Source: Planctomycetota bacterium (GTDB lineage: Bacteria; Planctomycetota; PLA2; JAEUHO01). From it: 64,000 nt of DNA. Below the pieces are notes generated by a model that was not told the DNA's origin, ran no database searches, and saw only the letters and a program-made list of their open reading frames with translations. The position numbers and the translations under genes are program-made. Positions 1,557 through 45,843 of the stretch are shown here, piece by piece (positions within the stretch are counted from its first letter, which is position 1; each line of letters starts with the position of its first letter). The stretch is from the NCBI GenBank assembly GCA_965222115.1, contig CBDCTJ010000007.1, forward strand, positions 2,272,001 through 2,336,000, read 5' to 3'.

Positions 1557-2306
1557 CTAGAAATCCACCGTCACGCCGACTCGTAGCGTTGCGTCGCCGT
1601 GGGTGCGCCGCAACGAAACATTGGGACGTACGCGGGTTCGAAGCCAGCGGTCGTGTTCCAGCTCGCCAAAGAACGTGCCGAAGAAGTTGCCTGCACCCCA
1701 GCCCACAAGCACATCCGAGGGGTAGTGCTTTCTGGCTGAGACTCTCAAGGCTCCCGTCGCGACCGGTAGAAGTGTTAGCGCACCATCGAGCCACGGGCGC
1801 ACGTCGCGCCGAACACGAGAACGTTTCAGTGCGTATCGAAGGGACGCGGCGCTCCACGCTGTGTGCGACGTGTGGCCGGAGTAAAAACTCAGGTGGTTCT
1901 CTCCATTTGGACGTCGTCGATGCCACAACGCCTTGAAGGGTCGATTGAGCGCCTCGTTTGCCACGCCTGTCGATACGGTGCCCACGAAGGGATCCCACGA
2001 TTGGTACCGCGCACTCTCAACGCCGGAAACGGTCAACGCTCCTAGAACCGATCCACGCAGCAACGCGTCGCTGGCCCGCTCGGCAGCGTCGGTATCACCG
2101 TCGGCAAACTCATCGGAGATATCGTGATCCAAGTCGGCTGCATCGATCGCGATCCCCGCGACAATCGGCGCCCAGGTTCGCCAGTCGGTCGCTGCCGTCT
2201 GCAGTGCTTTCGAGTGTGTCGGCGTCCACCCAGTCGATGAGCACCCGCCCAGCAACAACGCTGACCAGCCGACCCACCACACCATTCGCGTTCGCCCGTC
2301 AGGCAT
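1557..2306 (-). CDS. PAP2-family phosphatase, probable lipoprotein
   Basis: PAP2 motifs K-x6-RP (KALWHRRRP), SFYSGH and R-x5-H-x3-D (RVSARKHYPSD), plus a lipobox-like LLGGC. Confidence 0.85.
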   Translation of the reverse strand: MPDGRTRMVWWVGWSALLLGGCSSTGWTPTHSKALQTAATDWRTWAPIVAGIAIDAADLDHDISDEFADGDTDAAERASDALLRGSVLGALTVSGVESARYQSWDPFVGTVSTGVANEALNRPFKALWHRRRPNGENHLSFYSGHTSHTAWSAASLRYALKRSRVRRDVRPWLDGALTLLPVATGALRVSARKHYPSDVLVGWGAGNFFGTFFGELEHDRWLRTRVRPNVSLRRTHGDATLRVGVTVDF

Positions 2307-2448
2307 GTTGGTATCTCGCCTCCCAACGCGCAGTGTACGAGTAAGCTACTGCGGCAGGGGGCCGTTGGCACGAATTTCGAATGCAGTGGTACAGCTTCCA
2401 TAAACAAGTAACGGGTGCAAATTTTCGTGGGTCATCCAGTAGCGCCCT

Positions 2449-2554
2449 CCCGTTCCCCGTCACCCGTCACCCGTTACCCGTACCCCGAAACCCGTTACCC
2501 GGTCTCAAGGTAGATCGCTCGATGAGCGATGCGTTCGGCGCTTAAGACGTGGAC
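2449..2554 (+). repeat. Composite unit of heptamer array + CTCAAGG core + single GTGGAC, overlapping the stop of the four-helix-bundle gene
   Basis: CCCGTCACCCGTCACCCGTTACCCG...CTCAAGG...CTTAAGACGTGGAC, homologous to 3149-3325 and 8684-8756. Confidence 0.75.
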
Positions 2555-2931
2555 GGCCAAGGCTCGTCGAATCTTCGTTGAAGCACGAACAACATGGCGG
2601 CGGATCGCTCAAGGGTGCTCATGACGGCGGAGATTGCGGCCTCGCTGGCGAGTCCGAGTAGTAGCGCGTGATGTAGAGCTGCGATGGCCTCGGTGCATTC
2701 GGCGTGTGCGATGTCGTACGCTTTGCGCTTCTCGGCTGGCCGCCGCTTCGCCAAGCCCTCTGCGACATTGAGTGCCACGCTGGTACTTGCGCGCCTGAGT
2801 TGGTCGGCAAGTTTTGCGTGGCCACGAGGCCATGCGGCGCACAGGGCGTTGCATCCAAGCGCGGCAGCTTGCGAAGCACGGTAGACATCGAAGCGTTTTA
2901 GGTATTCGAGCGTAGAAGACGCGCTTGTCAT
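2542..2931 (-). CDS. Four helix bundle protein (23S rRNA-IVP / bAvd-like family), copy A
   Basis: FDVY...LADQLRRASTSVALNVAEG...AYDIAHAECTE family signature. GGAG SD precedes ATG 2931. Confidence 0.85.
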   Translation of the reverse strand: MTSASSTLEYLKRFDVYRASQAAALGCNALCAAWPRGHAKLADQLRRASTSVALNVAEGLAKRRPAEKRKAYDIAHAECTEAIAALHHALLLGLASEAAISAVMSTLERSAAMLFVLQRRFDEPWPSTS

Positions 2932-2932
2932 G

Positions 2933-3082
2933 ATGGAACTCCAGCGTGAAGGGATCGCAAGCCGCTTGCTCGCGTGTGCCCCTCGTTGAAAGAGCCGAAG
3001 GCGAAGGAGGGCACACGCGAGGGGGTCGTACAAACAAGGCCCCGCGTGATAGCGACAACCCGTTCTCATGCTGGAGTTCCAT
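2933..3082 (-). other. Structured 5' leader of four-helix-bundle copy A
   Basis: A 17-bp inverted repeat (2933-2949/3066-3082, 1 mismatch) covers the SD and encloses a perfect 13-bp hairpin stem (2969-2981/3009-3021). Confidence 0.65.
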
Positions 3083-3217
3083 TACAAGCGGTGCCCGCGC
3101 GTACCGAACGCGCTGGTGCAACCGGCGGTGCTGTCCAAGGCCCTACCACCCGTTACCCGTCACCCGTTACCCGAACTCAAGGGTGATCATCCGAAGATCG
3201 ATTCGCGCCGCCTTAAC

Positions 3218-3325
3218 GTGGACGTGGACGTGGACGTGGACGTGGACGTGGACGTGGACGTGGACGTGGACGTGGACGTGGACGTGGACGTGGACGTGGA
3301 CGTGGACGTGGACGTGGACGTGGAC
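3218..3325 (+). repeat. (GTGGAC)18 perfect tandem repeat, preceded by heptamers + core (3149-3217)
   Basis: Read directly from the sequence. Confidence 0.95.
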
Positions 3326-3376
3326 GCGAATGGCAAGAACGCGCTAGTCGCATGCGTGCGACATTGGTAAGGTACC

Positions 3377-3532
3377 GAACTGATCGCTGTGTGACGTGAT
3401 TGCTCACTGGCAACACCCGCTTGGGAAGTGCTACGTGCATGCCCCTATTCGCCACAAGGGCGAGGGCACGCACTCGCATTCCCGCGGGTGTTTCCTCGTG
3501 GAGATTCTCGTATGTCACACAGCAATCAGTTC
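3377..3532 (+). other. Structured 5' leader of four-helix-bundle copy B
   Basis: 3377-3397 is complementary to 3512-3532 (ATG + first codons). An inner long hairpin spans 3412-3492 (AACACCCGC...GCGGGTGTT). Confidence 0.7.
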
Positions 3533-3898
3533 TCGGTTACTTCCACCGCGGGTCGGCTTGAACGATTCGACGTGTATCGAATCGCACGGCGTGCCGCGGC
3601 TAGCACTCACAAACTCTGTGGATCGCTGCCTCGAGGCAACGCGGAGCTTGCAAGCCAAGCTCGACGAGCCTCGACAGCCGTCGTCCTTAACATTGCCGAG
3701 GGCATTGGACGTGCCGGGGCAGGCGCAAAGCACCGTTCGTTCTCCATCGCTCGCGGCGAATGTGTCGAGGCGTCGGCGGCGCTCGACCTCATGCAGGCGA
3801 TGGACATCCTCGCGAATGCGAGCGCTGCTCCAACGCTTCGCGACCTAGATCGCGCCCGCGCAATGTTGAATGCGCTCATTCGTCGCTGGAGGGAATGA
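3512..3898 (+). CDS. Four helix bundle protein (23S rRNA-IVP / bAvd-like family), copy B
   Basis: RFDVYRIA...LASQARRASTAVVLNIAEG...FSIARGECVE, with a GGAG SD. Confidence 0.88.
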   Translation: MSHSNQFSVTSTAGRLERFDVYRIARRAAASTHKLCGSLPRGNAELASQARRASTAVVLNIAEGIGRAGAGAKHRSFSIARGECVEASAALDLMQAMDILANASAAPTLRDLDRARAMLNALIRRWRE

Positions 3899-3917
3899 GG
3901 GGTGCGCATTCCAGGTT

Positions 3918-4555
3918 CCCGTCACCCGTTACCCGTAACCCTCATTCAAGGGCGGGCATCCAATGAATGATGCGCGCCGCCTTAACGTGGACGTGGACGT
4001 GGACGTGGACGTCGAGAGCAAATGGCTTTGCCATTTGCACGAGACCCTGAGTAAGCACCAGCGGATCTTTGATCCGCGCAGTGCGCATCGAAGGGTGGAC
4101 GTGAACGATCTGAGCCTTCCCTTTGCCGACTCGCAGACGACGCTCCACGTCAACTTCAACGGCCCCGGGGGGGGGCACGGGTCAATAGCCCAGTGTGAAG
4201 CGCAAGCGCAGCGGCGCGTAACGCTGGGTTTAGACGTCCCCAAAATTGGCCACCCTGAAAGGGTGGCGGAAACCCACGAACATCTACACGCGTAATCTCG
4301 CACAGACGATTCGTGATTTTCATGGCCCCGATTAGAGACGTGTTCGTCGTAAGTGGTTTGAACCCTCTCCCCACAACGCCCTCTCCCAGAGGGAGAGGGG
4401 GGCTTTGACTTGGGAAAGACTGTGAGGCTAAGAGTTTGCGGCTCCCGTTGTCTTTTGGATTGCCTCAGCTGCGAACGAAACGCTGCGGACGGCGTGCGCG
4501 CTGGTGACTGAGCGCTGCTCCATGAAACGTGTGGATTTTGCCCGTACGCCGTATC
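3918..4555 (+). repeat. Full-length modular composite repeat: heptamers, core, (GTGGAC)4, CCCTGAGT..TCGAAGGG hairpin, REP-like 46-bp core, CCCTCTCCC..GGGAGAGGG hairpin, 27-bp motif
   Basis: Colinear with 8684-9164 and 12060-12329, and inverted at 27300-28190. Confidence 0.85.
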
Positions 4556-4658: not shown

Positions 4659-5003
4659 ATGGCCCACCGCGAATCAAGAAATGTCTCGTTGGCTCCGGCC
4701 CAAGATCAATTCGTAAAGGCGATGGTGGATGGGGGCCGCTTTCGTACCGCCAGTGAAGTTGTGCGCGAGGCGCTGCGTCTATTGGAAGAGCGGGAGCATC
4801 GCCGCTTGCTTGAGAAGTGGATCTACGAAGGCCTCACAACCAATGAAGAGGCGCGACTACCCGAAGCAATTAAGAAGCGCGCTCGTGAGCACTTCGAGGG
4901 CCTCTTGTCCGCGCCGCTCGCAGATGTTGAGTACGGCAACGTTGCCGAAGGTGCGTCCGCCATGGCAAAGCTACGATCCGAACTCGAATCGCAGTCGGAC
5001 TGA
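4659..5003 (+). CDS. Type II antitoxin, ParD family (ribbon-helix-helix)
   Basis: NVSL...FVKAMVDGGRFRTASEVVREALRLLEERE signature. Confidence 0.88.
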   Translation: MAHRESRNVSLAPAQDQFVKAMVDGGRFRTASEVVREALRLLEEREHRRLLEKWIYEGLTTNEEARLPEAIKKRAREHFEGLLSAPLADVEYGNVAEGASAMAKLRSELESQSD

Positions 5004-5308
5004 GTTTCACGAGCTATCAACTAACCACCACAGCGGAAGAAGATCTACGCGTTGCTCTACAGTTTGTTGCCAAGCGAGACGGAGTCGACCGGGCACTCCG
5101 CGTGCACAACCGATTCCTCGAGACGTTTAGCGCCATCGCAGAAATGCCACGCATCGGGTACGTGCGACCGGGCTTGACAGGGAATCGCTTTCGTTGGTAC
5201 ACCGTATTCAAGTGGGTTGTGATCTACGACCCCGTGGGTTCACCCATCACGATTCTCCGAGTCTTGCACAGCGCTCAAGAACTAGACCGCATACTTGATG
5301 AAGACTAG
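5000..5308 (+). CDS. Type II toxin, RelE/ParE family (probable CTG start)
   Basis: SYQLTTTAEEDL...AEMPRIGYVRPGL...VVIYDP...ILRVLHSAQEL. The only start-like codon upstream of the N-terminal motif is CTG 5000, which overlaps the ParD TGA. Confidence 0.82.
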   Translation: MSFTSYQLTTTAEEDLRVALQFVAKRDGVDRALRVHNRFLETFSAIAEMPRIGYVRPGLTGNRFRWYTVFKWVVIYDPVGSPITILRVLHSAQELDRILDED

Positions 5309-43378: not shown

Positions 43379-43440
43379 TAGACGTCCGGACCCCGCAAAA
43401 AAGTGCCGGGTGTAAATTTGCGAGGTTCGCGTGTCTCCCT

Positions 43441-43628
43441 TCACCCTTCACCCGTCACTCGTCACCCGTTACCCATAACCCGTACTCAAGGGCGGGCATC
43501 CGATGAACGATTCGCGCAGCCTTAACGTGGACGTGGACGTGGACGTGGACGTGGACGTGGACGTGGACGTGGACGTGGACGTGGACGTGGACGTGGACGT
43601 GGACGTGGACGTGGACGTGGACGTGGAC
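43441..43628 (+). repeat. Heptamers + core + (GTGGAC)17 (43527-43628)
   Basis: Read directly from the sequence. Homologous to 3918-4010. Confidence 0.93.
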
Positions 43629-43677
43629 GTGTGGTGGCCACGTGAATACCGCTTGTGAGCGACACCCATAACGCACC

Positions 43678-43833
43678 GAACTGATTGTTGTGTGACGTGA
43701 AGGCTCACTGGGCAACACCCGCTTGGGAAGTGCTACGTGCATGCCCCATTCGCCACGAGGGCGAGGGCACGCACTCGCATTCCCGCGGGTGCTTCCTCGT
43801 GGAGATTCTCGTATGTCACACAGCAATCAGTTC
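43678..43833 (+). other. Structured 5' leader of four-helix-bundle copy C
   Basis: 43678-43698 pairs fully (with G-U) with 43813-43833. Inner hairpin at 43716-43791. Confidence 0.7.
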
Positions 43834-44199
43834 TCGGTTACTTCCACAGCGAGTCGACTTGAACGATTCGACGTATATCGAATCGCACGGCGTGCCGCGG
43901 CTAGCATTCACAAGCTCTGTGGATCGCTGCCTCGAGGCAACGCCGAGCTTGCGAGCCAAGCTCGACGAGCCTCTACAGCCGTTGTCCTCAACATCGCAGA
44001 GGGCATCGGACGTGCTGGCGCGGGCGCAAAACACCGCTCGTTCTCCATCGCGCGCGGCGAATGCGTCGAGGCGGCAGCAGCCCTCGACCTCATGCAGGCG
44101 ATGGGCATCCTTGCCGGTGCGAGTGCGGCCCCAACGCTCCGCGACCTGGATCGTGTACGTGCGATGTTGAATGCGCTCATTCGTCACTGGAGAGAGTGA
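43813..44199 (+). CDS. Four helix bundle protein (23S rRNA-IVP / bAvd-like family), copy C
   Basis: 128 aa and nearly identical to copy B, with many synonymous differences. Confidence 0.88.
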   Translation: MSHSNQFSVTSTASRLERFDVYRIARRAAASIHKLCGSLPRGNAELASQARRASTAVVLNIAEGIGRAGAGAKHRSFSIARGECVEAAAALDLMQAMGILAGASAAPTLRDLDRVRAMLNALIRHWRE

Positions 44200-44217: not shown

Positions 44218-44388
44218 TCCCGTCACCCGTTACCCGTACTCAAGGGCGGTCATCCGAAGATCGATTCACGCCGCTTTGACGTGGACGTGGACGTGGACGT
44301 GGACGTGGACGTGGACGTGGACGTGGACGTGGACGTGGACGTGGACGTGGACGTGGACGTGGACGTGGACGTGGACGTGGACGTGGAC
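44218..44388 (+). repeat. Heptamers + core + (GTGGAC)18 (44281-44388)
   Basis: Read directly from the sequence. Homologous to 3149-3325. Confidence 0.93.
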
Positions 44389-44395
44389 GTGTATG

Positions 44396-44479
44396 TAGGC
44401 CAGGTGGGACTCGAACCCACATAGGTTTTCACCCGGGGGATTTTAAGTCCCCTGCGTATACCAATTCCGCCACTGGCCC
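44396..44479 (-). tRNA. tRNA-Leu (TAA), CCA not encoded
   Basis: GGGCCAGTGGCGGAATTGGTATACGCAGGGGACTTAAAATCCCCCGGGTGAAAACCTATGTGGGTTCGAGTCCCACCTGGCCTA, with a long variable arm. Confidence 0.95.
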
Positions 44480-45241: not shown

Positions 45242-45457
45242 ATGTCACGCGCACACATTCGTTTAGCACTTGTACTTGCTTTCTTGCTTGTGCTTCCCGT
45301 GGGTCTTGCCGGTTGTCAATCGGAACGTGGATATACCGATGGCGTGGGCATTCCGTCGCCCTTCTCAAGCTCAGGGCGACCCGTATATTCCGGCAGCGAA
45401 GGCAGCCGCGAGGGTCTCGGCGCCAAGGACAAAGACTACGTGCATGCGTGGCCCTAG
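45242..45457 (+). CDS. Small lipoprotein
   Basis: AGGAGG SD, hydrophobic stretch and LAGC lipobox. Confidence 0.7.
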   Translation: MSRAHIRLALVLAFLLVLPVGLAGCQSERGYTDGVGIPSPFSSSGRPVYSGSEGSREGLGAKDKDYVHAWP

Positions 45458-45477
45458 ACCACACGGCACGCCAACTG

Positions 45478-45678
45478 CCCGTTTCCCGTATCCTCCGTCA
45501 CCCGTGTCCCCGTAATCCGTTACCCGTGTCCCCGTAATCCGTTACCCGTGAACCGCCCGATGATCGATTCGTCCCGCGTCTAGGAGGTCGAGAACAGATA
45601 GGCGAAGCCCATATGCGCGAGACCCCGGTAAGCACCAGCGGATCTTTGATCCGCGCGGTGAGCATCGAAGGGTGGACG
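45478..45678 (+). repeat. Degenerate composite repeat (heptamers, core remnant, GAGACCC..GTAAGCACCAGCGGATCTTTGATCCGCGC..TCGAAGGGTGGAC)
   Basis: Homologous to 3918-4100 and 8684-8846. Confidence 0.8.
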
Positions 45679-45843
45679 GGAAATGGGAAACACCCGTCTC
45701 TATCGGAGGAGTAATTGATCGCCGCGAGTGGGCTCATCTCGCGCAGAGGGAACACGCCCCCTTATCGGCAGGCCAATAGCGTGCGAGTTGGATCATATAT
45801 ATCCATTTTGGATAATTTCTGGCCAGTATGGTGGGATCAGGGC

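Follow-up and report, generated by a model that had tools for sequence, protein, structure and literature searches.

Four-helix-bundle proteins of the PF05635 family are common in bacteria and have been seen inside rRNA inserts. Avd acts as a cofactor of the reverse transcriptase (RT) in diversity-generating retroelements (DGRs), where its gene lies between two direct repeats, the variable repeat (VR) and the template repeat (TR); we know of no function for PF05635 proteins outside DGRs. The homology of Avd to this four-helix-bundle family is stated in PMC10053308, and a passage of PMC3936711 records PF05635-type genes between cas genes. In Coxiella burnetii's intervening sequence (IVS), according to the relevant section of PMC4990558, tandem GACAGAT heptamers stand before the S23p open reading frame (ORF) and vary in number among strains. 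In the literature covered, outside which subscription journals lay, no account was found of microsatellite-bracketed four-helix-bundle genes outside rRNA. Genes of this kind are described here from a 64,000-nucleotide stretch of a Planctomycetota bacterium (positions 2,272,001-2,336,000 of contig C7 in a 4.55-Mb genome of seven contigs, G000), referred to throughout as the window. They are carried in cassettes bracketed by direct copies of a composite unit, U, which is defined as (CCCGTYA)n heptamers, then a core of ~40 nt reading CTCAAG..TCCGATGATCGATTCGCGCC.., then (GTGGAC)n hexamers.

The original prediction, drawn from the letters of the window, placed three + strand copies of U around two divergent genes, recognised both genes as members of the four-helix-bundle family and noted a third gene with the same brackets. 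All of this holds, and the two loci are laid out as follows, the hexamer count being given with each array.

First locus:
2449-2554, + strand: unit U1, with heptamers at 2449-2501, core at ~2502-2548 and a single GTGGAC at 2549-2554
2542-2931, - strand: gene B, type-B four-helix-bundle protein of 129 aa (PF05635 58.5 bits, TIGR02436 55.7 bits)
2932-3146, - strand: B leader, a long predicted hairpin with arms 2933-2949 and 3066-3082 and inner stem 2969-3021, its GGAG ribosome-binding site paired
3147-3325, + strand: unit U2, with heptamers at 3147-3173, core at 3174-3217 and (GTGGAC)18 at 3218-3325
3326-3511, + strand: non-conserved spacer, then A leader, with predicted hairpin arms 3377-3395 and 3514-3532 around a near-invariant inner stem
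3512-3898, + strand: gene A, type-A four-helix-bundle protein of 128 aa (PF05635 64.7 bits, TIGR02436 66.9 bits)
3918-4010, + strand: unit U3, with heptamers at 3918-3941, core at 3942-3986 and (GTGGAC)4 at 3987-4010
4010-4112, + strand: tail module of two small hairpins, closing the element

Second locus:
~43390-43430: head hairpin repeat, before U4
43433-43628, + strand: unit U4, with heptamers, core and (GTGGAC)17
43629-43812, + strand: spacer and A leader
43813-44199, + strand: gene A2, encoding a type-A four-helix-bundle protein (95% identity to gene A; PF05635 68.2 bits)
44219-44388, + strand: unit U5, with heptamers, core and (GTGGAC)18

The stop codon of gene B falls within the CTTAA end of U1. 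The scores of A, A2 and B all exceed the curated family cut-offs (33.8 bits for PF05635; 24 for TIGR02436, against which the three span 55.7-70.2).

The arrangement recurs well beyond the window. PF05635 has 18 matches in the genome, all above cut-off and all on C7 between 2.274 and 2.848 Mb, where they occupy 14 loci and, with their surroundings, well under 1% of the genome. Two paralog types were found, eight genes being of type A (90-95% identical in protein among themselves) and ten of type B (40-44% identical to A), and these are distributed as four B-A pairs, four solo A and six solo B. Mapping by BLAST with module queries cut from the window gave, written in the U direction, the order U, B (reversed), B leader, U, A leader, A, U, tail. 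Orientation is fixed, A always lying on the strand of U and B always opposite, and this is true also of two loci that are wholly inverted. Parts of U lie within 500 bp on both sides of 17/18 PF05635 genes, the sole exception being an A gene at 2346 kb that lacks a downstream unit. Counted from the repeats, 19/27 hexamer arrays (n>=3), 26/37 (CCCGNNN)n>=3 arrays and 20/26 core matches are within 500 bp of a PF05635 gene, and every heptamer array in the genome is part of the cassette and U system. Chance expectation, taken from 100 shuffles of the window per pattern, was 0.00 for both (GTGGAC)3, with 49 matches in the window, and the two-heptamer pattern CCCGTYACCCGTYA, with nine. The genes, together with their leaders and both microsatellites, make up a single recurring family of modular elements and are not coincidental neighbours. 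The prediction had argued for a single unit in place of coincidental microsatellites and had proposed counting co-occurrence across the genome; it is supported on this point by the U-flanked genes, the chance expectation and the recurrence of the same layout in the genome G031 described below.

The hexamer arrays vary widely in length by locus, from n = 1 to 33, with 100% purity at up to 33 copies (198 bp), and the cores next to these pure arrays differ by 26%. They sit between the conserved core and the conserved leaders, exactly at the cassette junctions. About ten units are gene-less; at least two of these, at 2443.7 kb on C7 and 354.5 kb on contig C3, retain leader stubs without a gene and are therefore decayed cassettes. 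Taken as a whole, the data are best explained by a lineage-specific direct-repeat variant of a microsatellite-packaged four-helix-bundle cassette, a type familiar elsewhere from 23S rRNA IVSs that carry an ORF, a reading that we hold tentatively and rate a little short of an even chance. The family was amplified to 14 intergenic loci near the replication terminus long ago, and all copies have since been kept by purifying selection. The orderly packaging, with its direct composite units and two paralogs of fixed orientation, is apparently undescribed.

Comparison with 23S rRNA IVSs, as presented for Leptospira and Coxiella burnetii in part of PMC4990558, shows much in common: a PF05635 gene is packaged with short tandem repeats, a long stem lies beside the gene, distribution is sporadic, and neither a function nor a mobility enzyme is known. 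In contrast to IVSs, the cassettes here lie between protein genes and not in rRNA, their flanks are direct and composite with no inverted arms around the ORF, and the long stems are found in 5' leaders only; there are also two repeat types, two paralogs in fixed opposite orientations and 18 copies clustered at the terminus. Avd belongs to the homologous four-helix-bundle family and its gene likewise lies between direct repeats, VR and TR, but the flanking repeats here are non-coding microsatellite units with no template/variable pair. A profile search for RVT_1 found no DGR reverse transcriptase in the genome; the system is therefore no DGR, and functionally neither A nor B is an Avd. The link to Avd made by the prediction is one of family and fold homology only. 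Integron cassettes and their attC sites resemble the present elements in having small genes between direct copies of a junction site, some genes reversed and some sites gene-less. They differ in that no integron integrase stands beside the loci, U, which lacks a conserved hairpin and a conserved fold (alifold -0.9 for the core), is no imperfect palindrome, and the loci are scattered singly or in pairs instead of forming one array.

Estimates of selection were made by the pairwise Nei-Gojobori method. The ratio of non-synonymous to synonymous divergence (dN/dS) was 0.081 for type A (28 pairs; mean dS 0.58, minimum pairwise dS 0.40) and 0.123 for type B (45 pairs; mean dS 0.65), and the gene trees take a star-like shape, their end branches measuring ~0.09. 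It follows from the low dN/dS and the star-like trees that each copy has been under purifying selection since an old amplification. Mobility, as claimed at the outset, is therefore to be understood historically: the 14 intergenic loci, the remnants and the patchy distribution of the family speak for past movement, and the age of the A copies, with their minimum dS, speaks against recent movement.

Selection of this kind also bears on a different explanation, in which the genes would be a host-useful multigene family, for instance of toroids that bind RNA or DNA and act in defence or RNA metabolism, with expression tuned at each locus by slippage-prone microsatellites. U would then be a regulatory spacer, as in a contingency (phase-variation) system, and not a recombination module. 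Such a family would fit the finding that all 18 copies are old yet under strong purifying selection, the wide range of lengths among arrays that are still pure, the position of the arrays between conserved core and conserved leaders, and the divergent pairs of two paralog types present in two genomes. When compared with contingency loci, the arrays here differ in length between loci and are non-coding, the stop codon of B coming before the array. PF05635 is also patchy, being present in 14/40 genomes of the class (0-20 copies each) and absent from 26/40, including the near-complete, few-contig relatives G001, G002, G003 and G015. Moreover, about ten units are without a gene, some loci show decay, no promoter consensus was found in or near U, and A and B match no defence model in PADLOC. 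On this evidence a host-useful family tuned by its repeats is unlikely.

The leaders carry conserved, predicted sense-RNA stems over the translation start. Distances among leaders are 0.07 (A) and 0.125 (B), five- to eight-fold below those at synonymous sites, and the z-scores of their folds against shuffles are -6.5 and -4.4, respectively. The outer stem of the A leader (3377-3395 with 3514-3532) is predicted to cover the AUG and the first seven codons, and the stem of the B leader is predicted to pair the GGAG just upstream of the AUG. Across copies, 49 of the 63 predicted pairs of the A leader are invariant and two are compensatory, with 12/503 non-standard cells, 29 G-U and eight A-C; for the B leader 71 pairs are predicted, 41 being invariant and five compensatory, with 27/707 non-standard cells, 52 G-U and 11 A-C. 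Since G-U cells exceed A-C cells, the stems are better in the sense RNA than in the opposite strand. Gene-adjacent hairpins containing GGAG or GGAGG were also found in three relatives from other genera (L007, L004 and G031). In the sense mRNA the leaders would form long stems hiding the ribosome site or start codon, and these may control translation, the probable route being RNase III-type processing like that of intervening sequences. The nearest solved structure for the proteins is 2GSC, a homopentamer; these basic, toroid-forming proteins are likely to be nucleic-acid binders, and their targets may be the arrays or the leaders of their own genes.

The prediction had also called the unit self-contained, a claim that found no support: no enzyme of any kind, be it a recombinase, transposase or RT, is linked to the cassettes. 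An all-against-all comparison of 76 flanking ORFs (<=3 kb from the 14 loci), based on crude ORF calls, revealed no recurrent family, and only the cassette with U is copied among the 14 intergenic loci. The same crude calls place convergent genes on either side of 8/14 loci. Seven matches to tyrosine recombinases (Phage_integrase) were found, none of them at the loci and the nearest 1.4 kb from a decayed remnant; two Y1 transposase matches are likewise not at the loci, the single Y1 gene lying ~0.9 Mb away. RVT_1 has seven matches in the genome, including two sets of three with equal or nearly equal scores (C3:81659, C7:1004494 and C7:1984989; C7:881482, C7:2631845 and C7:3037923) and open frames of 515 and 445 aa. 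These two sets probably represent putative multi-copy group II introns; one match, one of three equal-scoring, lies 1.3 kb left of U at locus 5. A further RT, of 996 aa, is a Cas6-RT-Cas1 fusion (L138:661-3648, corresponding to ~261-264 kb on C7 of G000). The prediction had suggested looking for an RT acting in trans; the only RTs in the genome are the putative group II intron-type sets and the Cas6-RT-Cas1 fusion, with no DGR enzyme. As an observation in its own right, the fusion resembles the adaptation modules of type III CRISPR systems that take spacers from RNA.

The units show a marked polarity with respect to replication. Cumulative GC skew places the origin near 0.605 Mb and the terminus near 2.775 Mb on C7, the latter position being approximate, and the C7 units all lie at 2.27-2.94 Mb, no more than ~0.5 Mb from the terminus. 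The strand carrying GTGGAC and CCCGTYA is the leading strand in 23/25 hexamer arrays and 33/34 heptamer arrays, counts to which no probability is attached because the copies are not independent events. Unit orientation flips between 2.815 and 2.842 Mb, and the units on C3, where the skew is negative, are on the - strand. Local gene-strand bias is weak (0.33-0.66), and co-orientation with genes is therefore no explanation of the polarity. Canonical G-quadruplex motifs occur on the opposite strand of 33/37 heptamer arrays.

Polarity of this kind would be expected if the cassettes were moved in trans at the replication fork by an enzyme acting on single-stranded DNA or RNA, either an IS200-type Y1 transposase or an RT with an Avd-like cofactor, arrays then arising by slippage at insertion junctions. 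The leading-strand bias, its flip near the terminus, where gene-strand bias is weak, and the location of the arrays exactly at cassette junctions are consistent with this; the genome carries a Y1 transposase and six multi-copy RVT_1 genes of putative group II intron type, and Avd itself is an RT cofactor. Set beside IS200/IS605 elements and repetitive extragenic palindromes (REPs) with their associated tyrosine transposases (RAYTs), the cassettes show a strand bias, a single and distant Y1 gene, and no conserved hairpin in U of the kind that Y1 transposases use. No RT or Y1 gene lies within 3 kb of any of the 14 loci, apart from the single RVT_1 match near locus 5, and the 996-aa RT is not a DGR enzyme. 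All A pairs have dS of at least 0.40 and the sole close B pair is explained by a conversion tract (see below), so nothing shows recent transposition. Local copying, together with terminus-symmetric inversions, may instead account for an inherited polarity. We consider movement by a trans-acting enzyme quite unlikely.

The same distribution could also suggest that arrays and toroids make up a chromosome system of the terminus region, the polar arrays serving as binding or motor-orienting sites in the manner of KOPS (FtsK-orienting polar sequences) or matS. The span of the C7 elements around the terminus, the switch in orientation close to it and the opposite-strand G-quadruplex motifs would agree with such a role. 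Against this, family and arrays are missing from most relatives and so cannot serve a core chromosome function, repeat sequences vary between genomes, and the clustering may be just local copying in a permissive region. A terminus system is very improbable indeed.

The exact repeats are private to this genome to judge from those compared. (GTGGAC)5 was found in 0/28 other genomes of the family and the heptamer pattern in 0/39 other genomes of the class, many of these being fragmented metagenome-assembled genomes (MAGs) where repeats assemble badly; among 14 loci from a metagenome scan no protein relative exceeded 48% identity, except two 34-residue fragments at 53-56%. Short-period repeats are tied to PF05635 generally. 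In a sample of 20 distant loci, arrays of period 5-9 were within 600 bp at 10/20 and inverted arms at 6/20, and direct flank matches were found at three, one of which consists of inverted-arm cassettes in tandem. L007, a member of the same family but of a different genus, has a gene enclosed by inverted arms of 97 nt, together with a leader hairpin and a 33-copy hexamer array, whereas the arms in the present genome are direct and its hexamer and heptamer arrays weakly complementary.

The most informative relative is G031, of another family in the same order, with 20 PF05635 matches and two paralog types, A' (copies 84-86% identical) and B' (82-89%), which are 49% identical to each other. Three divergent pairs each lie between three direct copies of a composite unit consisting of (CCCGAA / CCCGAC / CCCGACC)n, hexamers of the form (ACGTTC)n and a core that bears a TCGATCATTCGA-like motif, and one locus is wholly inverted with all its repeats reverse-complemented. 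The unit differs from U in module order, and A/B are only 35-43% identical to A'/B' with no clean orthology, which means that the layout either is old or arose in parallel. All hexamers of these lineages belong to the ACGTNN type, with ACGTGG in the present genome, ACGTTC in G031 and ACGTTG at two metagenome loci. Outside this lineage the hexamer alone is not diagnostic, as a narrow custom hidden Markov model detected a four-helix-bundle ORF within 1.5 kb at only four among the 111 listed (GTGGAC)5 loci, of which there are at least that number in other phyla and many in Myxococcales MAGs.

One pair of loci bears a clear trace of recombination. The only close pair of genes, the B copies at 2634 and 2731 kb, are 4% apart. 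Between loci 5 and 11 there are exact runs of 94, 47 and 86 nt, which start at distance 0 from the hexamer array and fade toward the leader, and across the array the core and heptamers are only 75% identical. This mosaic, a single case, points to a conversion tract seeded in the hexamer array. Loci 11 and 12 share a 108-nt identical run covering the 5' end of B and its start. Distance among A copies grows with genomic distance (rho 0.69), and no such trend was seen for B.

These traces suggest how a direct-repeat, microsatellite-packaged cassette might spread with no dedicated mover enzyme. The arrays, which are perfect and match one another at all loci over up to 198 bp, would serve as homology for host recombination, which would excise, insert and convert cassettes, and replication slippage could keep the arrays pure and length-variable.

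Several points weigh against this account. The clear conversion tract is just one, and the other long identical runs are mostly in constrained leaders, where they may reflect selection. The strong selection on all 18 copies is no less compatible with a gene family useful to the host than with a selfish one. A recombination model leaves unaccounted for both the leading-strand polarity of hexamer and heptamer arrays and the persistence of two repeat classes, CCCG-rich and ACGTNN, across families. A consensus scan found no promoter or terminator in 2300-4300, RNase III processing and binding of the arrays by the proteins are steps that we purely infer, and the contigs from four sequencing runs (two samples of one study), being shallow and broken at the arrays, showed neither variation in array length nor the presence or absence of a cassette; none of the runs listed for this DNA is an RNA run.

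Two of these gaps would be closed if the two microsatellites were the specific ligands of the two paralogs, protein and array then forming a self-maintaining unit that can do without a transposase. Toroids that bind arrays at the replication fork would stimulate both slippage and strand exchange templated by the arrays, and would in this way generate the arrays, copy cassettes to nearby units and impose both the polarity and the restriction to the terminus; repeat classes could then persist across families while exact sequences drift with the proteins. This seems to us decidedly unlikely. The genome offers an unusually clean natural data set of 18 diverged, selected copies, two paralogs, conserved RNA leaders and two strictly polar microsatellites. 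It makes testable the nucleic-acid ligand of each toroid, the use of perfect arrays as portable homology for enzyme-free exchange and the cause of the replication polarity, and it bears on an old puzzle, the existence in some bacteria of long tandem repeats of 6 and 7 bases.

Three candidate roles for the repeats were tried and rejected. A cis hairpin between the two arrays was considered as an enclosing stem, but (GUGGAC)8 with (CCCGUCA)7 gave a free-energy difference (ddG) of -31 kcal/mol vs -88 for a perfect complement, and this duplex ranks 7th of 30 heptamers of the same composition and is therefore not special. The core was considered as a structured RNA or attC-like site, and it has no conserved fold and matches nothing in Rfam at gathering score or E<=1. 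The arrays are not a Ser-Thr coding tail of B either, the stop codon of B preceding the array in the copies checked.

Further features of the window are associated with the two loci.

1349-1411, + strand: U0, a degenerate unit with at least four heptamers, one GTGGAC and a core that has decayed, beyond the PAP2-family gene as seen from U1
1557-2306: PAP2-family gene, bracketed by U0 and U1
44396-44479, - strand: tRNA gene, its 3' end a few bases from the end of U5
45478-45690, + strand: gene-less unit, with a heptamer-type array, a degenerate core and no hexamers, then a tail module

Neither U0 nor the gene-less unit at 45478-45690 had been noticed in the prediction. The presence of U0 means that the PAP2-family gene also lies between two units, which thus bracket at least one gene outside the four-helix-bundle family. 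The tail hairpins are GCAAATGGC..GCCATTTGC and GCGGATC..GATCCGC; the module has 42 matches genome-wide, and its inner 54 nt are also found alone on several contigs in both orientations, much as REP-type repeats are. The head repeat is palindromic, with CCCGCAAA, a 16-nt loop containing GTGCCGGGTG, and then TTTGCGGG. A loose pattern for it gave 17 genome matches, ~12 of them true, and seven are at or beside cassette elements; copies also occur at 2346442, 2669438, 2671793, 2841722 and 2846717 on C7 and at 354394 on C3. Its role may be that of a favoured insertion site or of a module resembling a terminator. Rfam identified two tRNAs and nothing else in the window at gathering score.

A ParD antitoxin / ParE toxin pair (PF03693, PF05016) is located at 4659-5308, directly right of the first element, and a small ORF with a lipoprotein-like signal peptide (45243-45458) lies between the tRNA gene and the gene-less unit at 45478. 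Contig C6 (48,116 bases) has 39.7% G+C compared with 55-59% for all others; it may represent a plasmid or phage, or contamination from binning. Several Myxococcales MAGs are rich in hexamer arrays of GTGNAC or GCGCAC type, and four Myxococcales MAG contigs (L025, L031, L042 and L070) contain small hairpins without genes, in which (GTGGAC)n and (GTCCAC)n form the arms and enclose a loop of ~25 nt.

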